In this document: piece after piece, positions 3,539 through 64,000 of the stretch | Numbering within the stretch: position 1 is the stretch's first letter | Layout of the letters: the number at the start of each line of letters is the position of its first letter | Assembly: GCA_024679065.1 (NCBI GenBank) | Contig: JAGIQG010000011.1 | Location: forward strand, 39,618,001-39,682,000 | Reading direction: 5' to 3' | DNA: 64,000 nt | DNA from: Sphyrna mokarran | Lineage: Eukaryota | Made by a program: the position numbers and the translations under genes | The notes under the pieces: model-generated | What the model was told of the DNA's origin: nothing | Databases searched by the model: none | What the model saw: only the letters and a program-made list of their open reading frames with translations

Positions 3539-3961
3539 GTACAATTTATTAAAAGCTTGAACCTTAATTTACAATGACAAATTTTAAAATATCTAACTAC
3601 ATTATATGTTGATATACAATTTAGTATTTTTTCCTGAATGTTAAATGGTAAATTTATACAGAATTTAATTGCACAGATTTCTAAATGTTGTGTATTGGTT
3701 GTATCAAATTGTCTTCAGTCTATTTAAAAAGTTACAATTCATGTATCTTGTCTCTTGTGATCCCTTCTGTTAATGTGTTTATTTGGAAATTTTGCTGTCT
3801 ATGGGTATGTTTTACAGTGTGTTTAATTTGGTGAACTCACCAATATAGTTTGGAGATGATGACATTGTTTGGTTTTGTTTAAATGGTAGACTGTTCTTTA
3901 ACGGAATTGCAAAAAAAGTCCTTTTTGCTGTGTCACTAAATTATATATGAAACCTTTATAG

Positions 3962-6487
3962 CTGCAGAACAGTTCAAGCCATCTTTGAAACTAAAACCTA
4001 CAGTCAAAGTTCCAAAGGAAGTAGAAGATATAGAAATTTCAGTACAGAAGAAAATTAGTAAGCTTCCCAAGGAAGAGAAAGATGAAGATGAGGGGATTAT
4101 ATTAAAAAAGGTGGATAGCTCTCCTAAAGAAGAAGACAAGTACATAGGGGTAGAACTTAGGAAACCGATTAAAGGTCCTGAGGAAGTGGAAGATGAAGAA
4201 CATGTATCAAGAAAGAAACCAGATGTAATCTTAAAAGAGAAAGAAACAGAAAGAGAAATAATATTGCAGTTGGTTGATGAGATTCCTAAAATAGACAAAG
4301 ATAATGGAAAAGGTGTATCAATAAAGAAATTAGATAAAATTTCTATTGAACAAGATGATGCATACAAAATGTTACCAAGAAAAGTTACCACAGTACAATC
4401 CAAAGAAATGGAAGAGGAGCTGGGTACACCGCTTAAGAAACCTGATAAGATCACTAAACAAAAGGAAGAAGCGGAAAAGATATCACTAAAAAAGCATGAC
4501 GCAGTCCCTAAAAAAGAAACATTAAAAGAAAAACGCATAATATCAAAGAAACTACCCAGTGATGAAGAAGATAGAAAAAAGCAAATAATATTGGAAACAG
4601 TTGGTGAAGTGCCTAAAATTGAAAAAGGTATAGAAAAGACTGTACATTTAACCAGAACAGAACTAGTTCCTATGAAGGTAGAAGACAGAGAAAAAATATC
4701 TGTGAAGCGTATCCTAGATGCTGATACAGAGAAGGATAAGGAGAAAATAATCCCATTGAAGGAATCTAGTCAAATCCCTATAGAACAGAAAGATGAAGGA
4801 AAACATTTGGCACTGAGAAAAGATAGGACATCGCCTCAGCTTGAGAGGGAAAAGGAGCACCCTAGTCTCAAGAAAGTTGACCTTCCTAAAATTATTCATG
4901 AAAAGAACAGGGTTGTACCATCTCTTGAAGAAGAGGCACCCAAAAGTATAGAAATTTATCCAGTCGATAGGATACCCAGGAAGACTACTCCTGAAGAGCC
5001 TGCATCAAAATTGGTACGAGAGGTTACTGCAGAAGAGGCTGCCGATATTACCAAGACAGTGTATGAAAAGAAAATGGTACTCTCCAAAGAAAAACCTCAT
5101 GAACCACCTTTAAAGATTGGAAAAGGGAAAGTTCTGGTTTCAAAAGAAGAACAGGAAACAGCTTTACTGAAAAAAATTCCCTCAAAAGGAAGTGCATTTG
5201 ATGCAAAAGAACCACAAAAGATTCACAAACTACCTGAAAAGGAAGTGGCAGCTTATAAAGAGAAAACACAAATTATCCCTACTAAAATGGATAAAGGGAA
5301 AGTATCTGACGAACAGGAACCAGAGCAGTTAGAAAAATTCCCCTCTAAAGAAATTCTGTTTGAAGATAAGGAATCACAGAAAATACAGAAAGTTCCTGAA
5401 AAGACATCAGTGGTCCCTACAGCGAAAGTTGATGAAACACATTTTAAAATTGCAAAAGGAAAAATTCCTGTTTTGGAAGGACAGAAAGATCACATAGAGC
5501 TGAAGAAAGTTCCTTCAAAGGAAATTGTAATAGAAGAAAAGCCACAGAAAGTACCAGTAAAGAAAGTCCTGACACCCAGGGATGTACCTGATATTGCACA
5601 TCCTAAGATTGGGAAGGGAAAAGTACCAGTGTCAGAAGAAAAAGATCAAGCACAGGTGAAGAAGATTCCTTCAAAAGAAGCTGTGGTGGAAGAAAAGCCA
5701 CAGAAAATACCAATAAAGAAAATACTGACACCCAGGGATATACCTGATACTGCACATCTTAAAATTGGGAAGGGAAAAGTACCAGTATCAGAAGAAGAAA
5801 AAGATCAAGCACAGATAAAGAAGATTCCTTCAAAAGAACCTGCAGTGGAAGAAAAGCTACAGAAAATACCAATAAAGAAAGTCCTGACACCTGATGCTGC
5901 ACATTTTAAAATTGGAAAAGGAAAAGTGCCAGTGTCAGAAGAAGAAAAAGATCACATACAACTGAAAAAGATTCCTTCAAAAGAACTTCCGGTGGAAGAA
6001 AAGCCACAGAAAGTACCAGTAAAGAAAGTACTGACACCCAGGGATATACCTGATACTGCACTTCCTAAAATTGGAAGGGGGAAAGTACCAGTGTCAGAAG
6101 AAGAAAAAGATCAAATGCAGCTAAAAAAGATTCCTTCAAAAGAACTTGTGATGGAAGAAAAGCCACAGAAAATACCAGTAAAGAAAGTACAGACCCCTAG
6201 AGAAGTGGCACACCTTAAAGCAGGCAAAGGGATTCCATCAGTTGTTGAAAAAGAATTGGAACTAACACAAATTAAAAAAGTTCCCTCTGAAAATATCTCA
6301 ACAGAAGATGACTATGAAGTAGAATCAGAAGAAATGTCAATAGAAGAATTACGGGACAAAGGAGACTGGGAATGGGAATTAACTGAAGAGGATGAGGAAT
6401 ATGGCTCATCTGTTGACTGGGAACATGAAGATGATGAAGAGTTAGAGGGTGCAGTTGAGACTCCTTCAAAGCCTTACAAACAACGAG
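3962..6487 (+). CDS. ttn: titin giant PEVK exon (2526 nt, 842 codons)
   Basis: tag|CTGCA...CGAG|gtgaga, phase 1-1, P/E/V/K-rich uninterrupted ORF; alternative in-frame acceptor at 3968. Confidence 0.9.
5107..6290 (+). repeat. Coding tandem repeat, about 8 units of ~49-57 aa (KIGKGKVPVSEEEKD...KKIPSKE...EEKPQK...KKVLTP)
   Basis: Visible in both protein and DNA; best-conserved units lie at ~5440-6210. Confidence 0.9.
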
Positions 6488-7129
6488 GTGAGATGGCTGC
6501 TGCACATCTACCAAACTGATTGTTCATATCTTGTGCTTTGGAAAATAGATCAGTGTTCTTTGTTTTTGTTTGTGTTCATCTTTTGTCAAACATCTTTGTT
6601 TGTCCTCGCAATGCAGCTTGTGTTTATGTGCATGATGTATCATGATTGTCAAAAGTCTTTCAAAAGGTTGTTAAAATTCATGTCTGTTTCTTGAGTTGGT
6701 CCATGTGGTCCTATGCTTCCCAAAGAAAAATTGTCTTAATTTGCTTTGTCGTTTGCTATTAACAGAGCTACGGGTGAATTAAAATCATTTTTCATTTACA
6801 TCATTGAAGGCACAGGCTTCAGCAGACCTTTCAAATTGTCTGGTTTCACATTTTTCATTCAAAACTAATTATGTCTTTTTCTTCATTCTACATCTCCGCA
6901 TGAGTAAACCTTTGTTTAGTGTATCAAACAAGTGGTAGTGCCATTTTTGATTTTTCTTTTGTCTGTATTATAGATAATCAATATATAAATATATTTTTCC
7001 ATCTAAATACAATACACTTTCTGAGCCTCATTGTTTCCATCCTAAGGTTATAACAGAAGCATTTTAACATATAATAATTTGGAAGGATAGTCTTGACATG
7101 CCGATAATTATGTTACTATCTCACTACAG

Positions 7130-9949: not shown

Positions 9950-11010
9950 GTCCAATCTTTTTCCAGTAGTATCCATGACTCTTTCAATGCTCACTTTAAC
10001 AGTCTCCAATTTCCTAGTGCTAACCATCTCCTCTTCACCACGGACATGTATTCCCGCAATATCTCCATCTTCCACCAGAGTAGTTTGAGGGCTTCACACC
10101 TTTCTTGAATGGAGGCATGAACAGACTCCATCCACCACATTATTTTCTACCTGACTAAATTTATTTTTGCATAGAATAGCCTTCCAAATCCGCTCACTTC
10201 CTTCAAATAGGAGGTGTTGTTAAAGATATCCAAATGGATCGTAGCATTGCCTTCCTTTTTGAGGGTTTGTGGAATGTCCCTTGAATATGGGGCCTTTTTT
10301 TCAGGCAACTTGATGTCAGTGCCATTTCCTGCTTTCACGTTAAACTAGAAAATTTCATCAACGATGCATATTTCCTACCTTCCCCTGATTCATCTCTGAC
10401 TCTTCCCTTCCTTGACTTCTTTGTCTGCATTTCAGGTGATTGGCTGTCAATGAATATTTGCGAGAAAAGTTTCTTATAAAGTTTATTTATTATTGTCACA
10501 AGTAGGCTTACATTAACACTGCAATGAAGTTACTGTGAAAGTCCCCACACTCCGGCACCTGTTCAGACCGATGCACCTAATCAGCATGTCTTTCAAACTG
10601 TGGGAGGAAACCAGAGCATCCGTAGGAAACCCACGTAGACACGGGGAGAGCACACAAACTCCACGCGGACAGTGACCTAAGCCAGGAATCAAATATGGGA
10701 TCCTGGCGCTGTGGGGCAGCAGTGTTAACCACTGTGCTACCGTGCCACCTCCTGAAACCCGTTGGTTGTCACAGCTACCTTGGTCATAATGCCTCATTCC
10801 CTGTTTCTGTAAGGACAGCACTCTATTTTCCAAGATTCCTTGTCTCAGTTGCACCTAATGATGCAACTTGCTATGCTACCACTTCCATGCCATCATCCTT
10901 CGTATTCAGTGGATCATCCACTGCTGTTTGCACTACCTCTGCTCATCAAACACCTCTATCCTCCTCTCAGCTTTCACCACTATTCAGGAACCCTACCCTT
11001 CATTACATTC
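9950..11010 (+). mobile_element. Degenerate Penelope-like retroelement RT fragment, split by a SINE
   Basis: Remnants of LLFT.D, LPFLDF.V.ISGD.LS.NI and HSYL...S.P.S..D RT motifs on either side of the SINE. Confidence 0.6.
10478..10749 (-). mobile_element. tRNA-derived shark SINE (HE1/V-SINE-like), AATAAATAAAC-tail type
   Basis: Minus-strand head GGCACGGTAGCACAGTGGTTAACACTGCTG..., core GGTTTCCTCCCACAG, tail CAGTAACTTCATTGCAGTGTTAATGTAAGCCTACTTGTGAC. Confidence 0.9.
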
Positions 11011-20375: not shown

Positions 20376-20502
20376 GATATTGAGATTAAAAAGGAAGGTA
20401 CAAAACATTTTCTTACACTGTACAATGTGCAGATGGATCAAGCTGGTCAAGTTGAATTCCAGGCTGCCAATGCCAAAACCGATGCCCATTTGAGAGTTAA
20501 AG
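20376..20502 (+). CDS. ttn: titin Ig I95 exon b
   Basis: DIEIKKEGTKH...LRVK; AG/GT. Confidence 0.94.
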
Positions 20503-20689
20503 GTAAACCTGTTGAATATCATAGATTAAAAATGTTAATAGCCAAGAAATATGCACTTCTGAAACTCTTAAGACGTTTTGACATTTTACGAGGGATCTAT
20601 ATTTCTCTGCATGTTATGAATATCCAGAACAATCTGCAATGATGTTTTCCATTATACACCACTATAGGTTTCCAAAATTATTGACCACC

Positions 20690-21118
20690 TCATTAATAAT
20701 TGATAAAGGGTTACATTGTTGGCAGCGTAAAGCAGGGAGCTGCCATATTTATTGATTTATTATTGAATAATCCCCTTTTTGGCAGCTGCTAAACTGCTGG
20801 TAGATGGAATTGGGCTATTGCCAAGCAAACAGCTGTTTAACTAAACAGATCTGCTAGTACTCTTGGATGGGTTGTTCCTCAAGTAGAAATGGGGGGGATC
20901 GACTACGAAAAGTAGTTTGAATGTGATGTAGGTTAGGTTTACTGTAATATTCTTTAGGAAGTAAAATGTCGAGATACAGATTTTGACTTCACCCATTGCT
21001 TTTATGGCCAGACCTTGGTCATCTGGGTGGTTGAATAGTCACATTCTGTTGGGACAGCTGAAATGCATCTTTAATTTCTTGAGATTAACGGGCACACCCA
21101 TCTCTTTTGCATTCAAAG
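20690..21118 (+). promoter_or_regulatory. Candidate Cronos-type internal titin promoter (intron before I96)
   Basis: Position equals human intron 239-240 by exon count; TGATAA 20701, CArG-like CCCTTTTTGG 20773, E-boxes CAGCTG at 20783, 20830, 21055; no recognisable repeat. Confidence 0.5.
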
Positions 21119-21261
21119 CTCGGGTGATTGGTTTACTTCGGCCCCTCAAGGATGTGACCGTAACCGCTGGAGATTCAGCTACTTTTGAATGTGAACTCTC
21201 ATACGAAGGAATTGAAGTGCAATGGTTCTTGAAGAACAAGTTACTTGAACCCAGTGAAAAG
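21119..21261 (+). CDS. ttn: titin Ig I96 exon a
   Basis: RVIGLLRPLKDVTVTAG...; AG/GT. Confidence 0.95.
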
Positions 21262-21763
21262 GTATGATGAAAAATACTAAAACAAAAATAATATCCATGA
21301 GTTACTGTGTGAATGTGCATGGCTGGCTACACTATGCAAAGCAATCTTTGTTTTAGAGTTTAGAAAAAAAACTTGAACTATTAATTCCTGATTACCAAAA
21401 CCACAATTTTGCAAACCAAATATCCTTTATATAAATATCCATGACAAGCTTATTCCATTTTCAATTATCTGAACTTTACATTATATAGAAATAAAAAGGC
21501 AAGGCTGAACTATAGTTGAAATAAAGCATTAGAAATTTAAACAATGTTAAATTGATTATAATTTCTTAGTATTTTGCAACAGTTAAATTACATCAATATC
21601 TTTTTCAGGTGTCTGATAAACCCCCATTTTTTTGAAAGTTGGAAAAAATAGTTTGTATGAAAATGTGATTGTTATTTGAACTGGACAGTTGCCTACTTTA
21701 AACATGACTTGAATAATCATAAAGTGAATTTACTAATTATATAAAATTCTTATTTTGGATCAG

Positions 21764-21887
21764 GTTGTTACACGCGCTGAAGGCAGAGTGCACACTTTCA
21801 CTCTCAGAGACGTCCAGTTGGATGAGGCTGGTCAAGTCAAACTCACTGCTAAGGACTTCGCAACATCTGCTAAACTTATTGTTAAAG
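21764..21887 (+). CDS. ttn: titin Ig I96 exon b
   Basis: VVTRAEGRVHT...LIVK; AG/GT. Confidence 0.93.
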
Positions 21888-22458: not shown

Positions 22459-24069
22459 GTTTGCTTTTCATTTATGTCATTCTATTGGTATTTATTTTTA
22501 AGTTTCATTTTATGATGAAAATTAAAATGCAATTATTTTAATTTAAACAAACTTATGGGTTAAATAACAATCTCACCTGCTGTGAGACACATATGCTTTC
22601 ATTTCTTTATCAATCGCAGAGTGAGGTTACAATTAATGAGACTTCATGGTGAAATAAATGTTTTTGTATATTTTCCTGTATAATGGTCTCTTCCACCCTT
22701 TCGGGTCTAAAATTAATAAATTATCAGCATTTCCACTTTTCTTGGAGTTGCATATATGTTCAAGGTCATTTACTAATCCTCATTTTTCCTGTACATGTGC
22801 AAGTGGTCAGCGCTAAATTATATATTCGAGACCTGGTAACTGCCCTTGGACACACCTGAGTCCAACCTTCTTGCCAAGTGCCATCAACAAGCAATGCCTC
22901 CCCCCAACCCCCACCACCAGTCTAGGCCTTCTTTGCAGCTCCCTCCCAGCTCCAAACTGCCTCATCGCAGTACCCCAAGTGTCAATTTGCATGTTATATT
23001 GCATTTTCAGTACCTTTATAGGAGCCTGGGAATTCCAGACTTCACCAAGAATACAGAATATTATTCTCCTGCTCTTGTCACCAGAAGACACTCAGATTTG
23101 AATGTGCCTTGCAACGCTGTCTATCAGTAGCCTGAACGCCCAGATGTTTGTGACAAACAGCACAACCTCAGATTTCTTAGGTCTTTTACGTAAATGTAAC
23201 ATTCTACAATATGTCTCCAAATGTAACTAACCGACCAGAAACCTTCGTTTTTAAGCATATTCTGTCACCAGAATTGCATGATTATTTCCAGGAGTTTAAT
23301 CAATCAACATTTATGAAAATTAGAATTTCTTCTGAACTTGTAGTCATATTTGTAAAATTGAGTGTTCACTTTACTCCATGCATTTATAGGTAGATAAAAA
23401 AAAAAGAACCAGTTCAGTAAAGCCATTCAGAGATGGAAACCAATTTTCCTATTCCATTCTCACAAAATGGTGTTAATTCTTAATACTCTCTGAAATAACC
23501 TTGCAAGCCTTTTAGCTATAAAACAACCACAACAAAGCAGACCAATAAGGGACAAACAAGAAATATTTGCCTAGACCTTGACTAACCAGTCAGTAGGTTA
23601 GGCCAAAGTTCAGACAACCCAAGCCACTCAACCCTAGGAAAAGAAAACATTTTGCTGATCTCTCGGAACTGATTGTTCTTGAATATGTCTTCTCACATTT
23701 ATTGAAAAGATCTACAAAATGGAGACTACTGGGAGCAAAGGCATAGTTGTAATGCTTCTGGATTGGTAATCCACAGTCTTAGACTGATGTTCCAGAGATA
23801 TGGGGCTGGATTTCCCAAATAGTACATGTCCCATTTCTGGGTCAGGAAACAGGTTCCAAGCCCATGCATCAATCGAGCCACCAGAAACAAGAAACGCACA
23901 CCCACTTCCCAGTCCTCCTCAATAACGTCTGATAATTTAAGAATTGGAAGAGCTATCTCAATGACTGACCTATGCTACAGAAAGAGGAAATTAGCTCATC
24001 AAGCCCGCATGCCAACAGCAATCCATAACCCTACGTATTTAACCTGCTAATCCCCCTGATACTTGGAGT

Positions 24070-24240
24070 AATTTAGCATGGTAATCGACATAACCCATGC
24101 ATCTTTGGGAGGAAACCAGAGCACCCAGAGAAGACACAGGGAAAATGTGTAAAATCCACACAGTCACTCAAGACTGGAATTGAACCCAGGCCCCTTGCAC
24201 TACAAAGCAACAGCGCTAACCATCGTGCCACCATGCCACC
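24070..24240 (-). mobile_element. HE1-like shark SINE (5' part)
   Basis: GGGAGGAAACCAGAGCACCC...AGCGCTAACCATCGTGCCACC on +. Confidence 0.85.
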
Positions 24241-24530
24241 CATGATCATTCTCAGAGAATCATGCCTTACAGCCAATGTCCGAGACTCCTCCATCATGAT
24301 CCATGGGCATGTCCTGCCCCATCAACAGAATAGGCCCACCAGAGATAACAGCACAGTGGTTCAGGGGGGAGCAGCCCTCCGATTCTCAATATTGATTCCA
24401 AACTGAAAGACATCATGGACAAGGAAACCTCTTGCTGATTACCACCTAGTACCTTCTCTCAACTGAGAGATCAATCCTCCTTCGTGTCGAAGATCAATTC
24501 AAAGAAGCACTGGGGGTTGCAAATGTACAG
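24241..24530 (+). mobile_element. Degenerate LINE (CR1/L2-group) endonuclease-domain remnant
   Basis: IILRESCLTANVRDSSIMIHGHVL...RPTR..STVV resembles LINE APE motifs. Confidence 0.5.
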
Positions 24531-35737: not shown

Positions 35738-36694
35738 AACATAGAACATAGAACATTACAGCGCAGAACAGGTCCTTCGGCCTTCAGTGTTGTGCCAACC
35801 AATTAAGAAAAAGCAATGACCCTCTAACCTAAACCTTTTCATCCATAAACTTATCTACTAACCTCTTAAATGCCACCAAACCTGGCGCATCTACAACTGC
35901 CGCAGGCAGGGCATTCCATACCCTTACCACCCTCTGGGTAAAGAACCTACCTCTGACATCCGTCCTATAACTACCACCCGTTAATTTAAAGCTATGTCCC
36001 CTCGTGCTAGCTTTCTCCATCCTAGGAAAAAGGCTATCACTGTCCACCCTATCTAAACCTCTAATCATCTTATATGCTTCAATAAGGTCTCCTCTTAGCC
36101 GCCTCCTTTCTAACGAAAACAACCTCAAATCCCTCAGCCTCTCTTCATAAGACCTGCCCTCCATACCAGGCAACATCCTGGTAAACCTCCTCTGTACCCT
36201 CTCCAATGCCTCCACATCTTTCTTATAATGTGGGGACCAGAACTGCACACAATACTCCAAGTGCGGCCGCACTAGAGTTTTGTACAGTTGCAACATGACG
36301 TTGCGGCTCCGAAATTCAATCCCCCTACCAATAAAAGCTAAGACTCCATATGCCTTCTTAACAACCTTATCGACTTGATTGCCAACTTTCAGGGATCTAT
36401 GCACATATACACCAAGATCCCTCTGTTCTTCAACACTATTAAGAGTCCTACCATTAGCCCTATACTCTACACATTTGTTATTCCTGCCAAAGTGAATTAC
36501 CTCACACTTTTCCACATTAAACTCCATTTGCCACCTCTCGGCCCAGCTCTGCAACTTGTCCAAGTCTCTCTGCAAACTATAACACCCCTCTTCACTATCT
36601 ACCACTCCTCCGACTTTGGTGTCATCCGCAAATTTACTAATCCATCCTTCAATACCCTCATCCAGATCATTTATAAAAATTACAAACAGCAGGG
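35738..36694 (-). mobile_element. Young 5'-truncated CR1 LINE (RT C-terminal half, intact frame) with 9-bp TSD
   Basis: GPLLFVIFINDL...KFADDTK...HLEYCVQFWSP...FFTQRVV ORF without stops; (TTCTATG)n tail; GCCCCTCTG at 35729-35737 and 36695-36703. Confidence 0.95.
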
Positions 36695-37865
36695 GCCCCT
36701 CTGGGAACACTCTGTCCTGAACCTCCCCAATGGAAGCTGTCCCTGCATTCATGGGCAGTCCCAAGGTACTGCCCAGGCATGACCCTCTCCCCACTGGAGA
36801 CACTGTTCACCTGAGTGCCCCCAATGGAGACTATTTGCCAGGCTCCTGTTTTACAAAAGCTGTGATAAACACTGGCATGAGGGGAGTCCTAATTTGGGGG
36901 ACAATAGAGTGGGGAAGCCTGCTAATGTGAGGGATAATAGAGCAAGGAAGCCTGCTAATGGTATTAAAATGTATGGTAATGGGTTTCCCATCATTACATG
37001 ATGGGAACCTTGTTACATTATTGGTGTGGAGTAGGGACAATCCATTGAGAACATTCCACTGGTGTGAAAGCCATTTTGGGGTACCTGCTGGATTTTCTGA
37101 CAGGCCATCATTCCTGCCTGCCGAAAACAGGGGAAGAAAATCCCAGCTGATGTTTTCCCATCTGGATCATCTGTGAACTTCTTTTAGCTGGCATCAATTA
37201 TTTTTTCACACAGGTACCCTTCCCCTATTTTGAGGAAGATACCTGCGCGAACACAGAGTTTATCAATCATGGGCATTCAACTATTCAACTTCTCTTTTTC
37301 ACTTCCCTTCCCTTTCCCTTCTCGTGTAGGTCTCAGTCACAGCTGAAATCTAACAGGGTGCCAATCTTCTAATTTCAATGTACTTCTGTGCTTTTAGCAG
37401 CGTCTTGGGCTTGGCAGGAGCCCTACCATGAACCTGCCATAATTTGATTTGTGAAATCAGTTTGGTGATGATGATGGATGGAGCTTAAGTCATGCCCTAC
37501 TGCAGCATTGACTGATAGGAAAATCCCACCTTTTGGACAGGATTTTCAAGCCCTGCCTGCCTCCAGGATTGTCTGTCAAACATTTTGGCTAGGCCACTGA
37601 ATCTCCTGCAAATGTCCCCACACAATGAAGTTGGAAAGTCCCAACCTATTGTGACTCACATTCTTTAATCCTACCAATCCTTATACATTTCATAAAATTA
37701 TCATTCAAGAATTGAACATCGTTTGCATTGAGCCATTTGAGCTGTATTAGCATCAAACATAAACTGACTTAAACCCATTCAGGAAATTTGTCTTAAGTAT
37801 GTTTGATGAGTTTTTTTTTTAATTTTTGGACTGTAGGTTTTAATTTGTAATTCTGCACTTCACAG

Positions 37866-60503: not shown

Positions 60504-60614
60504 GTTAGTTAGTTACATTGACTCAGATCATTTGCTTTGTGTTTTCCATTGCATTCGATCTGCAATTTATTTTTCATAATAATCATTGGTTTCCTGTATG
60601 CTTTTGTTTTACAG

Positions 60615-63581
60615 TATCCCCATCAGTGGATATAGATGTGAAGCTGATTGAAGGTCTTGTTGTAAAGGCTGGAAGCACAGTCAGACTTCCTGCTTTGATG
60701 AGGGGCATTCCTCCTCCTTCAGCAAAGTGGGTCACTGACAGTACTGAGATTAAATCAGAAGGCAATTACAAAATCGATACTGACAACTATTCAACTGTAC
60801 TCACTATTAAAGATTGTACCAGAAAACATACTGGTGAATATATTCTTACTGTTTCCAATCCAGTTGGCAGCAAGACAGTGGGTCTACATTTGACAGTCCT
60901 GGATGTTCCTGGTCCACCTGTTGGCCCAATCAATATCCTTGAAGTAACACCACAGCACATGATTATCTCTTGGCGCCCACCTAAGGATGATGGTGGAAGT
61001 CCCATCATCAATTATATCATTGAGAAACGAGAAACCAAGAAGGAAACCTGGGGTATTGTTAGCTCTGGAAGCACAAGCACTCAATTTAAAATTCCCCGTC
61101 TTCAGAAAGGATGTGAATACATTATGCGTGTTCGAGCAGAAAACAAAATTGGCATTGGTGAACCACTCGAGTCTAAACCCACTGTTGCCAAGTACATGTT
61201 TGATGTTCCAGGCCCACCCACTAAACCAACTGTTTATGATATCACAGAAAATGCTGTAACAGTTTCTTGGGGCATACCAAAGTACGATGGTGGCAGCCCG
61301 ATTATTGGTTACATTATGGAACGCAGAGAAACAACTGGTAAATGGATTCGGGTGAATAAGACACCAATTTTAGATCTAAAAATGAGAACGGTTGGACTTT
61401 TTGAAGGAAATGTGTATGAATTCAGAATATTTGCTGAAAATATTGCTGGTCTAAGTAAACCATCACCAATCTCCGATCCTGTCTCAGCAAAGCGCCCTAT
61501 TAGACCACCGGGACCACCAATCAATCCTAAACTGAAAGACAAGACAAGAGAATCTGTTGACTTAGTCTGGACAAAGCCTAGCAAGGATGGAGGTAGCCCA
61601 ATCTTAGGATATATTGTAGAATGTCAGAAGGCAAGTACTACACAGTGGAATAGAATTAATAAGGATAATTTAATCGAGCAATGTGCTTTTAGAGTACCTG
61701 GTCTTATCGAAGGTAATGAATATCGATTCCGTGTAAAGGCTGCCAATGTTGTCGGTGAAGGTGAACCAAGAGAACTACCAGAATCTGTAATTACAAAGGA
61801 CATCCTTCATCCTCCAGAGCTAGAACTTGATATTGTTTGTCGTGAGCTGGTCACAGTTCGTGTGGGACAAACAATTAGCATAACTGGCCGTGTTAAAGGC
61901 AGACCAGATCCAGAAATCACATGGTCAAAAGAAGGCAAGATGCTTTCTGATGACAAACGTGTAAAGATGAATAATGACTATCCTGTTATACAACTTTTGA
62001 TTAAAGAGGCGACCAGAGCTGACCATGGTAAATATATTGTTGTTGCGAAAAATAGTAGTGGACATGCCCAAGCTGCTGTTGTCGTCAATGTACTTGATAG
62101 ACCTGGCCCTTGTAAAAACATCAAGGTCAGCTATGTCACTAAAGATTCCTGTATGCTTGCCTGGGAAAATCCAGATGATAATGGAGGCTCAGAAATTACT
62201 AACTACATAGCAGAAAACCGTCAACCCAGCCAGAGAGGATGGTCTGTGATCTCATCTGATTTGACTAAACGTGTGGTCAAAGTTCCACTTACAACAAATC
62301 ATGAATATTTCTTCCGCGTGTGTGCAGAAAACAAAGTAGGACTAGGTCCAACCATTGAAACCAAAACACCAGTTTTAGCCATAGATCCCATTGAAAGACC
62401 TGGAGAACCTGAAAACTTCCATGTTGCTGACATAGGAAAGACATTTGTCCTGCTTAATTGGAGGCGACCTGACTATGATGGTGGTAGTCCTAATCTATCT
62501 TATCATGTTGAAAGAAAGCTAAAGGATTCAGCTGAATGGGAAAGATTACACAAAGGAAGCATTAAAGACACTAGTTTCATGGCTGACCGATGTATTGAGA
62601 ACCAAACCTATCAGTTTAGAGTTCAAACAAAGAATGAAGGTGGTGAAAGCAACTGGGTGAAGACAGATTATGTTATTGTTAAGCCAGAAATACAGAAACC
62701 AGTCTTGGATCTAAAGCTGACTGGAGTGTTAACTGTAAGAGCAGGTGACACCATCAGAATTGAAGCATCTCTCAGAGGCAAGCCTCAACCAGAAGTTGTT
62801 TGGGTAAAGGACAAAGATGCAGTTGATCTGAGCAGATCACCTCGAGCTAAGATTGAAACAACTGCTGACACAGCCAAACTCACTATAACTAAATCTAAAC
62901 GCGAAGACAGTGGCAAATATGTAATCACTGCAACTAATTCAGCAGGTAGCTTCACAGCATATGCCACCGTGAATGTGTTGGATGTACCAAGTGAAGTCAG
63001 AAGCTTGAAGGTCTCTGGCATTGCAAGTGATAGATGTAGAGTCAGCTGGGACCCACCAGCAGATGATGGTGGCTGTGAAATTCAAAACTATGTTCTAGAG
63101 AAGTGTGAAAGTAAGAGAATGGTCTGGTCCGTGTTCTCCTCTTCTATAATTGCCGAATATGCAAATGTTACTCGTCTTATTGAAGGAAACGAATATATCT
63201 TCAGGGTACGTGCAGAAAACAAAATAGGCACAGGTCCACCAACAGAAACAACGCCAATGGTAGCTAAGACACAGTTTAATAGACCTGGTCCTCCAGATGC
63301 ACCAGAGGTCACTAAAGTTAGCAAGGAAGAAATGACTGTTGTTTGGAATGCACCAGAAGATGATGGTGGAAAATCAATCACAGGATATATTCTGGAGAAG
63401 AAAGAGAAACGAGCTGTTAGATGGATTCCAGTCACCAAGAGTTCAATCCCAGAGAGACGCATGAAGGTTACAAATCTGATTCCTGAACGTGAATACCAGT
63501 TCCGTGTCAAAGCTGAAAATGAAATTGGATTAGGAGACCCAAGCCCACCATCAAAACCGGCAATAGCAAAGGATCCAATGG
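60615..63581 (+). CDS. ttn: titin large D-zone exon, A32-A41 (Ig-FN3x3-Ig-FN3x2-Ig-FN3x2), 2967 nt
   Basis: acag|TATCC...ATGG|gtactt; ten tandem domains in one ORF. Confidence 0.97.
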
Positions 63582-63685
63582 GTACTTACATTATAACATT
63601 TTTAAAAATTCTCAAAGTACAAATATTTAATTCCTTGTCACTTTATAAATTTCTCCTGACTCATTTCCTATCTTTCTTTGCACAG

Positions 63686-64000
63686 AACCTCCTGGCCCTC
63701 CAACTGGTCTAAAGGTGGTTGATAGTACAAAGACTTCAATTTCCCTTGGCTGGACAAAGCCAGTGTACGACGGCGGTTCTCCCATCATTGGTTATGTTGT
63801 TGAAATGAGATCAAAGGGTGTCAGCAAATTACCCGAAGAAGGATGGAAGAGATGTAATGTTCCAGCTCAGCTTGTCCTTACTCAATTTACCATGACAGGC
63901 CTTAATGAGAAAGAAGAATATGAATTTAGAGTTTCTGCACAAAACCAGGTTGGAATTGGTCGCCCTGCTGAACTGAAGGAAGCAGTATCACCAAAGGAGA
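63686..64000 (+). CDS. ttn: titin FN3 A42 exon (truncated by window end)
   Basis: cacag|AACCT; PPGPPTGL...WTKPVYDGGS... Confidence 0.94.

Follow-up and report, generated by a model that had tools for sequence, protein, structure and literature searches.

A Cronos-orthologous intron in titin of Sphyrna mokarran, with clustered E-boxes and an in-frame ACG at a predicted branch point

The titin intron and its flanking exons

The 64,000-nt stretch of Sphyrna mokarran DNA analysed here (hereafter the window) lies within the titin gene, and four of its features frame the site at which the internal titin product Cronos begins in other vertebrates:

20376 to 20502, plus strand: upstream titin exon, orthologue of human e239, mouse e222 and zebrafish e115 (from a primer peptide and RNA joints)
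20503 to 21118, plus strand: Cronos-orthologous intron, 616 nt, with joints in the RNA-type runs X1 and X3
21119 to 21261, plus strand: first half of the Cronos-opening Ig domain, orthologue of human e240, mouse e223 and zebrafish e116 (from primer peptides and Pfam I-set)
21764 to 21887, plus strand: second half of the same Ig domain, orthologue of mouse e224 (from the e224 primer peptide)

Cronos comprises about two thirds of titin and is a protein of developing muscle. It has been described for zebrafish ttn.2 (ttna), mouse and human, and its transcript runs unspliced from the intron into the exon in zebrafish and mammals (PMC4720518). According to the same source, the cap site lies 110 nt upstream of the exon in zebrafish and 256-257 nt upstream in human and mouse, the first Met lies 7 codons upstream of the exon in zebrafish and 12 codons upstream in mammals, and the promoter marks the position at which titin truncations become severe, as seen in zebrafish and in patients with cardiomyopathy (PMC4720518). 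In literature outside subscription journals we found no paper that treats Cronos in cartilaginous fish, the word 'cronos' has 0 occurrences in the elephant-shark connectin paper, and our searches returned no literature on E-boxes of the Cronos promoter.

A first-pass annotation of this DNA had proposed, from a count of exons, that the exon at 21119 is the equivalent of human exon 240. To place the intron, we used the peptides encoded by the published Cronos primers (PMC4720518). The exon at 20376-20502 ends in AHLRVK, the single such match in the window, and the e239/e222 primer encodes SSAHLRV. The exon at 21119-21261 contains RVIGL, CELSY and EGIxV, which are the peptides of the e116 and e223 primers and have one match each in the window (the e116 guide and nested primer translate to CELSY and EGIPVE), and RVHTxT in the exon at 21764-21887 matches the e224 primer (RVHTLT). 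These counterparts lie at 20484-20501, 21121-21222 (21190, 21205) and 21785, each once in the window. Because the primer peptides are unique at the flanking exons, the intron at 20503-21118 is, judged by these peptides, the Cronos intron (human e239-e240, mouse e222-e223, zebrafish e115-e116), and the proposed equivalence of the exon at 21119 to exon 240 is borne out. We take the Ig domain that opens in this exon to be I96; no PDB structure of this domain itself was found at high identity. At the second half of the domain (21764-21887), 38/41 residues are identical to Callorhinchus milii and 25-30/41 to starling, frog, grenadier and goby, the four bony-vertebrate proteins holding that exon, a pattern that marks the animal as a cartilaginous fish.

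The intron has the borders GT...AAG and is absent from full-length titin mRNA, contigs from 2/2 RNA-type runs being spliced across it; the contig of run X1 displayed 0 differences from the window over four titin exons. The X1 and X3 contigs (one each) do not cover the inside of the intron, which is uninformative, since contigs lose rare forms and adult zebrafish Cronos is scarce, amounting to 1:30 to 1:70 of full-length titin (PMC4720518). The annotated absence of a recognisable repeat from the intron was confirmed: self-BLAST of 224 kb of the locus masked 4/616 nt, no second genomic copy was found, and there was no Rfam match.

Elsewhere in the window, an 859-codon open frame rich in Glu, Lys and Pro (3940-6516) belongs to the elastic region, and a 1067-codon open frame (60509-63709) is a large A-band exon. 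Short interspersed repeats, presumably the shark HE1 SINE, were observed at 10516-10854 and 24000-24400, the first with 7 BLAST matches in 224 kb including itself, and a LINE reverse-transcriptase fragment (Pfam RVT_1; minus strand, 35832-36806) lies in a titin intron and is 89% covered by other copies in the locus. Among unique stretches of the 224 kb, the one richest in CpG (observed/expected about 1.0) lies about 64 kb past the end of the window (L018, about 3800-4500) and is possibly a promoter-like island near the gene end.

Motifs and conservation within the intron

The intron was also compared with X7 and X9, DNA contigs of two related species that are about 95% identical to the window; the sequence comparisons covered four of 12 runs (X1, X3, X7 and X9). 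The intron holds the following motifs:

20701 to 20706, plus strand: GATA-like site TGATAA, at chance level
20773 to 20782, plus strand: CArG-like site CCCTTTTTGG with one mismatch, at chance level
20783 to 20838, no strand: CAGCTG pair 47 nt apart (20783, and 20830 in a 12-nt palindrome), candidate promoter or enhancer core
21055 to 21060, no strand: third CAGCTG, not conserved (X7 and X9 both have T for G at 21057, and X7 also has T for C at 21055)

The intron, the motifs and the ATGs recorded by the first-pass annotation are all present at their positions. Its further claim that muscle-type motifs cluster here held for CAGCTG and failed for the GATA and CArG-like sites. CAGCTG occurs 3 times in the intron against 0.12 expected, and 0/5000 dinucleotide shuffles reach 3. 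Measured against the unique non-coding DNA of the 224-kb locus, the Poisson P is 0.0024 for 3 occurrences and 0.028 for 2, for a motif that was chosen after seeing the sequence. Two or more CAGCTG are found in 1/17 inter-exon gaps of 300-1200 nt, and two other non-coding CAGCTG triples lie within the 224 kb. CANNTG as a class is not enriched in the intron (4 vs 3.14, P=0.39), nor are CArG-like sites with one mismatch (3 vs 1.5, P=0.19) or GATA (1 vs 1.97), and the intron has no canonical CArG or MEF2 site. The 10-nt palindromic core around 20830 occurs once in 224 kb. The comparison of E-boxes with the relatives covers 21055 alone, which is broken in both X7 and X9. Clustered CAGCTG exceeds background (P 0.002-0.03, with the motif selected afterwards), as would be expected of a muscle bHLH promoter or enhancer. 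The mammalian cap-site distance of 256-257 nt, transposed to the window, falls about 30 nt past the second E-box. CpG observed/expected is 0.52 over 20860-21259, a weak signal that is reached by 6.4% of 1354 windows. Beside the E-boxes, we also observed a 7-bp inverted repeat without mismatches, its arms 12 nt apart, as well as TGGCA/TGCCA half-sites (20720-20745, 20780-20788, 20819-20823), which we take to resemble NFI half-sites.

The 3' part of the intron differs from X7 at 10/134 positions and the next intron at 16/304 (P=0.38), indicating that the former is not better conserved than the latter. The suggested alignment to the human and zebrafish Cronos leaders, run with primers, produced no match above the window background: for the five 5'-leader primers (from human, mouse and zebrafish Cronos), matches in the intron are no better than those elsewhere in the window, although the comparison has low power at such a distance. 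The upstream stretches of 8 bony-vertebrate ORFs, once translated, likewise had no significant plus-strand match in the intron, again at low power. Three individual resemblances were rejected. The human near-cap primer reaches at best 14/26 in the intron versus 17 elsewhere; a bird-type upstream peptide noticed by eye at 20835-20856 is equalled by 123/212 control tiles; and minus-strand matches of two upstream peptides (20716-20745 and 20653-20690, with 0 and 1/212 tiles scoring as high) fall in differing places and in the wrong orientation. The reverse strand near 20720-20745 resembles the translated upstream stretch of a teleost ORF, with 0/212 control tiles as high, and this resemblance is probably due to chance.

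Candidate start codons upstream of the exon

Four further features concern the start of translation:

20867 to 20937, plus strand: ATGs 20867 and 20889, both out of frame, together with TAG 20913 and weak donor-like sites; no support for a first exon
21004 to 21118, plus strand: open extension from ATG 21004, 38 codons, in frame only in this genome
21085 to 21090, plus strand: TTAAC, a predicted branch point with A 21088 as the branch base, sharing bases with an in-frame ACG (21088-21090)
21097 to 21099, plus strand: position of the zebrafish and elephant-shark Met, 7 codons upstream of the exon; here CCC

As annotated, ATG 21004 reads without a stop into the exon, through 38 codons, and its Kozak context is weak (T at -3). 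It is out of frame in both relatives, by +1 nt in X7, where that frame contains a stop as well, and by -13 nt in X9. Among 121 near-length, 39 longer and 0 shorter protein matches, none was homologous to the leader that it would encode. The proposal of a shark-specific N-terminus is therefore not supported for this ATG, since a start that is frameshifted in both relatives does not provide a shark-wide one. Open in-frame ATGs are also not rare by chance, with 20/118 automatically called titin acceptors having one within 39 codons (21004's included) and 11/118 within 13 codons.

A second possible start, absent from the first-pass annotation, lies at the predicted branch point. Between 12 and 45 nt before the acceptor, TTAAC with A21088 is the sole yUnAy motif, and the ACG beginning on this A is in frame, 10 codons before the exon. 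Both X7 and X9 carry T instead of C at 21089, so that this codon reads ATG in them. There is no gap between 21088 and the exon in either relative (the listed gaps account for all gaps of both contigs). In X9, where 71 rows of differences lie outside the listing and all 18 gap positions are accounted for, single changes beside 21089 are possible. At -22 the window has CCC, and none of the X7 differences listed (29 of the contig's 31) falls there. This genome has no in-frame AUG at 7 or 12 codons upstream and no ATG within 37 codons, so that its upstream in-frame starts are ATG 21004, which is private and at chance level, and ACG 21088. The next in-frame Met downstream lies at about 25460, several exons on, and three out-of-frame ATGs in the first exon precede it. 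Both the relocated ATG on the predicted branch point in the two relatives and the ACG here are new.

The direction of the change at 21089 was considered in a comparison without a root. Of the 29 listed X7 differences, 21 are common to X9, making the window the outlier, and one reading of the site is a change from ATG to ACG on the window's branch. ACG to ATG is, on the other hand, a frequent CpG change. In addition, a zebrafish primer (PMC4720518 supplement) has CTAAC at the matching branch-point motif. Given these two points, the relatives' ATG 21088 may be a neutral gain from an ACG in their ancestor. ACG can initiate translation at low efficiency (PMC5666671), and ACG 21088, as a putative start, resembles such eukaryotic non-AUG initiation in having G at +4 and lying in frame with a long ORF; it differs from the known cases in having T at -3.

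The position of the Met in other vertebrates was determined from a protein search with 21004-21264, which returned 121 near-length ORFs reading into the exon, 120 of them listed and most from anonymous sources. Among the 120 listed ORFs, the nearest upstream Met lies 7 codons before the exon in 61, 12 codons in 25 and 6 codons in 12, and there is none in 5; gene callers require a start, so the presence of a Met is selected among these ORFs, and its position is not. When the ORFs were divided by core residues, into classes that we defined ourselves and after dropping 4 ORFs starting inside the exon, 44/44 of the teleost ttn.2-type have the Met at 7 codons and 24/26 of the mammal-type at 12. These positions agree with the published 5'-RACE results. 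Together with the relatives' ATG, an ATG occupies three places (-22, -31 and -37 nt), in frame at each. A further, more divergent group of 27 teleost ORFs (among P0064-P0120) has a Met 5-24 codons before the exon; these are probably ttn.1, and ttn.1 too may have a Cronos. A metagenome scan gave one fish locus, with 113 nt upstream only, and in the fish contig L003 (93-114) an ATG lies 7 codons upstream of the exon.

Among cartilaginous fish, the Callorhinchus milii model UniRef100_A0A4W3IPV7 opens with a Met located 7 codons before the exon, the same distance as in zebrafish, and continues into the next exon. This predicted 98-aa model is closely alike in both exons of the Ig domain, with 37/47 and 38/41 residues identical to the window's two exons, and it differs from the window in opening with a Met where the window has CCC. 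It is filed as an anonymous Ig-domain protein rather than as Cronos, and is a prediction. Its Met at 7 codons supports an origin of Cronos before the cartilaginous and bony fish split, and on this model Cronos likely predates that split, as the first-pass annotation had suggested in dating it to the jawed-vertebrate ancestor. No shark-type ORF was found among the 121 near-length, 39 longer and 0 shorter matches, or among the best 150 of 398 representatives, in a collection that is itself a sample.

The zebrafish ttna/ttn.2 site shares with the window the same intron and downstream exon, the possibility of an unspliced in-frame extension and the same unusual AAG acceptor, but it has ATG at -22, which the window lacks; X7 and X9 have theirs at -31, where the window has ACG. 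The mouse Ttn and human TTN sites lie in the same intron (e222-e223 and e239-e240), with a Met 12 codons upstream where the window has none. The zebrafish leader primers have no detectable similarity to the window intron. DNase and H3K4me3 peaks mark the human site (PMC4720518). The acceptor itself (21116-21118) has A at -3, as in the zebrafish probe primer, and since many Cronos leaders end in Lys, coding may constrain this AAG.

Possible fates of Cronos in this lineage

Based on the data presented above, we consider it about an even chance that a Cronos promoter has been retained in this intron by inheritance, that its start codon has shifted position in evolution and reads ACG here, and that Cronos is made weakly in this lineage. 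Under this model, myogenic bHLH factors would bind the E-box pair at 20783/20830, and an unspliced transcript would start in the 3' half of the intron and continue into the exon at 21119, in the manner known from zebrafish and mammals. The relatives would translate from ATG 21088, its A doubling as the predicted branch point, while in this lineage translation would begin inefficiently at ACG 21088, or at ATG 21004 if the cap site lies upstream of 21004. The weakness of Cronos expected here follows from the ACG standing in place of ATG at 21088. A wider version, which we put forward tentatively as possible, is that Cronos is as old as jawed vertebrates and has kept its reading frame while the start codon shifted about the branch point, lying at -22 in teleosts and the chimaera, at -31 in the related sharks and at -37 in mammals. 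Here it would have shifted again, to ACG or to the private 38-residue ATG, in which case this gene would be a natural hypomorph or would have a new titin N-terminus.

The chief alternative is that an ancestral Cronos no longer functions in this shark group, with the -22 Met lost early, the ATG at 21088 a case of neutral CpG decay, ATG 21004 due to chance, and the E-boxes either due to chance or part of an enhancer for full-length titin. Several results are consistent with this: the CCC at -22, where no listed X7 difference falls, the lack of excess conservation in the intron, the 9% and 17% frequencies at which open in-frame ATGs arise by chance, and the lack of a shark-type ORF among the protein matches and of any leader similarity. 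However, it needs a chance ATG in the relatives, another one here and a chance E-box cluster (P 0.002-0.03), all in one known promoter intron, and in zebrafish skeletal sarcomere assembly is supported by Cronos (PMC4720518). We therefore regard loss of Cronos in this group as unlikely, though a serious competitor.

It is also conceivable that an indel brought ATG 21004 into frame and let 21088 decay, leaving a normal Cronos with a private 38-residue leader. The sole genome of the three without ATG 21088 is indeed the sole one with 21004 open and in frame, and the X7 stop in that frame fits as well, but such an ATG is a 17-23% chance event with T at -3. Moreover, a cap site placed as in zebrafish (110 nt upstream, near 21009) would rule out 21004, and one placed as in mammals would leave five ATGs before it. 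This full compensation is, in our view, improbable.

The C at 21089, which is read from the assembly, might instead be an assembly error or a rare allele in a species that otherwise has ATG like its relatives. The window nevertheless differs from both relatives at 7/134 sites in this part of the intron and at 12/304 in the next, so one more difference at 21089 is ordinary, and the X1 exons match the window with 0 differences; we judge a wrong or atypical base very improbable.

Most improbable of all is a spliced new first exon beginning at ATG 20867 or 20889, as the first-pass annotation had envisaged, for despite the good Kozak context at 20889 and the existence of phase-1 donor-like sites, including G|gttagg at 20931, known Cronos is unspliced, TAG 20913 interrupts the frame, and the donors match consensus at 5-6/9 positions, with T>C at 20934 in X9 changing the +3 base. 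That annotation had asked for a check of the TAG and a G7 run for assembly error. X9 has no difference among the rows listed at the TAG (inferred from the order of the rows shown), so the TAG is probably not an error; the G7 run lies at the end of a contig. If transcribed, the two ATGs would be short upstream ORFs.

Should the inherited promoter with a moved start codon prove true, Cronos would date back at least to the origin of jawed vertebrates, and a single base would serve both as the predicted branch point and as the opening base of a start codon. The occurrence of ACG in one lineage, with ATG in its relatives, would then be a natural experiment on the need for the Cronos protein.
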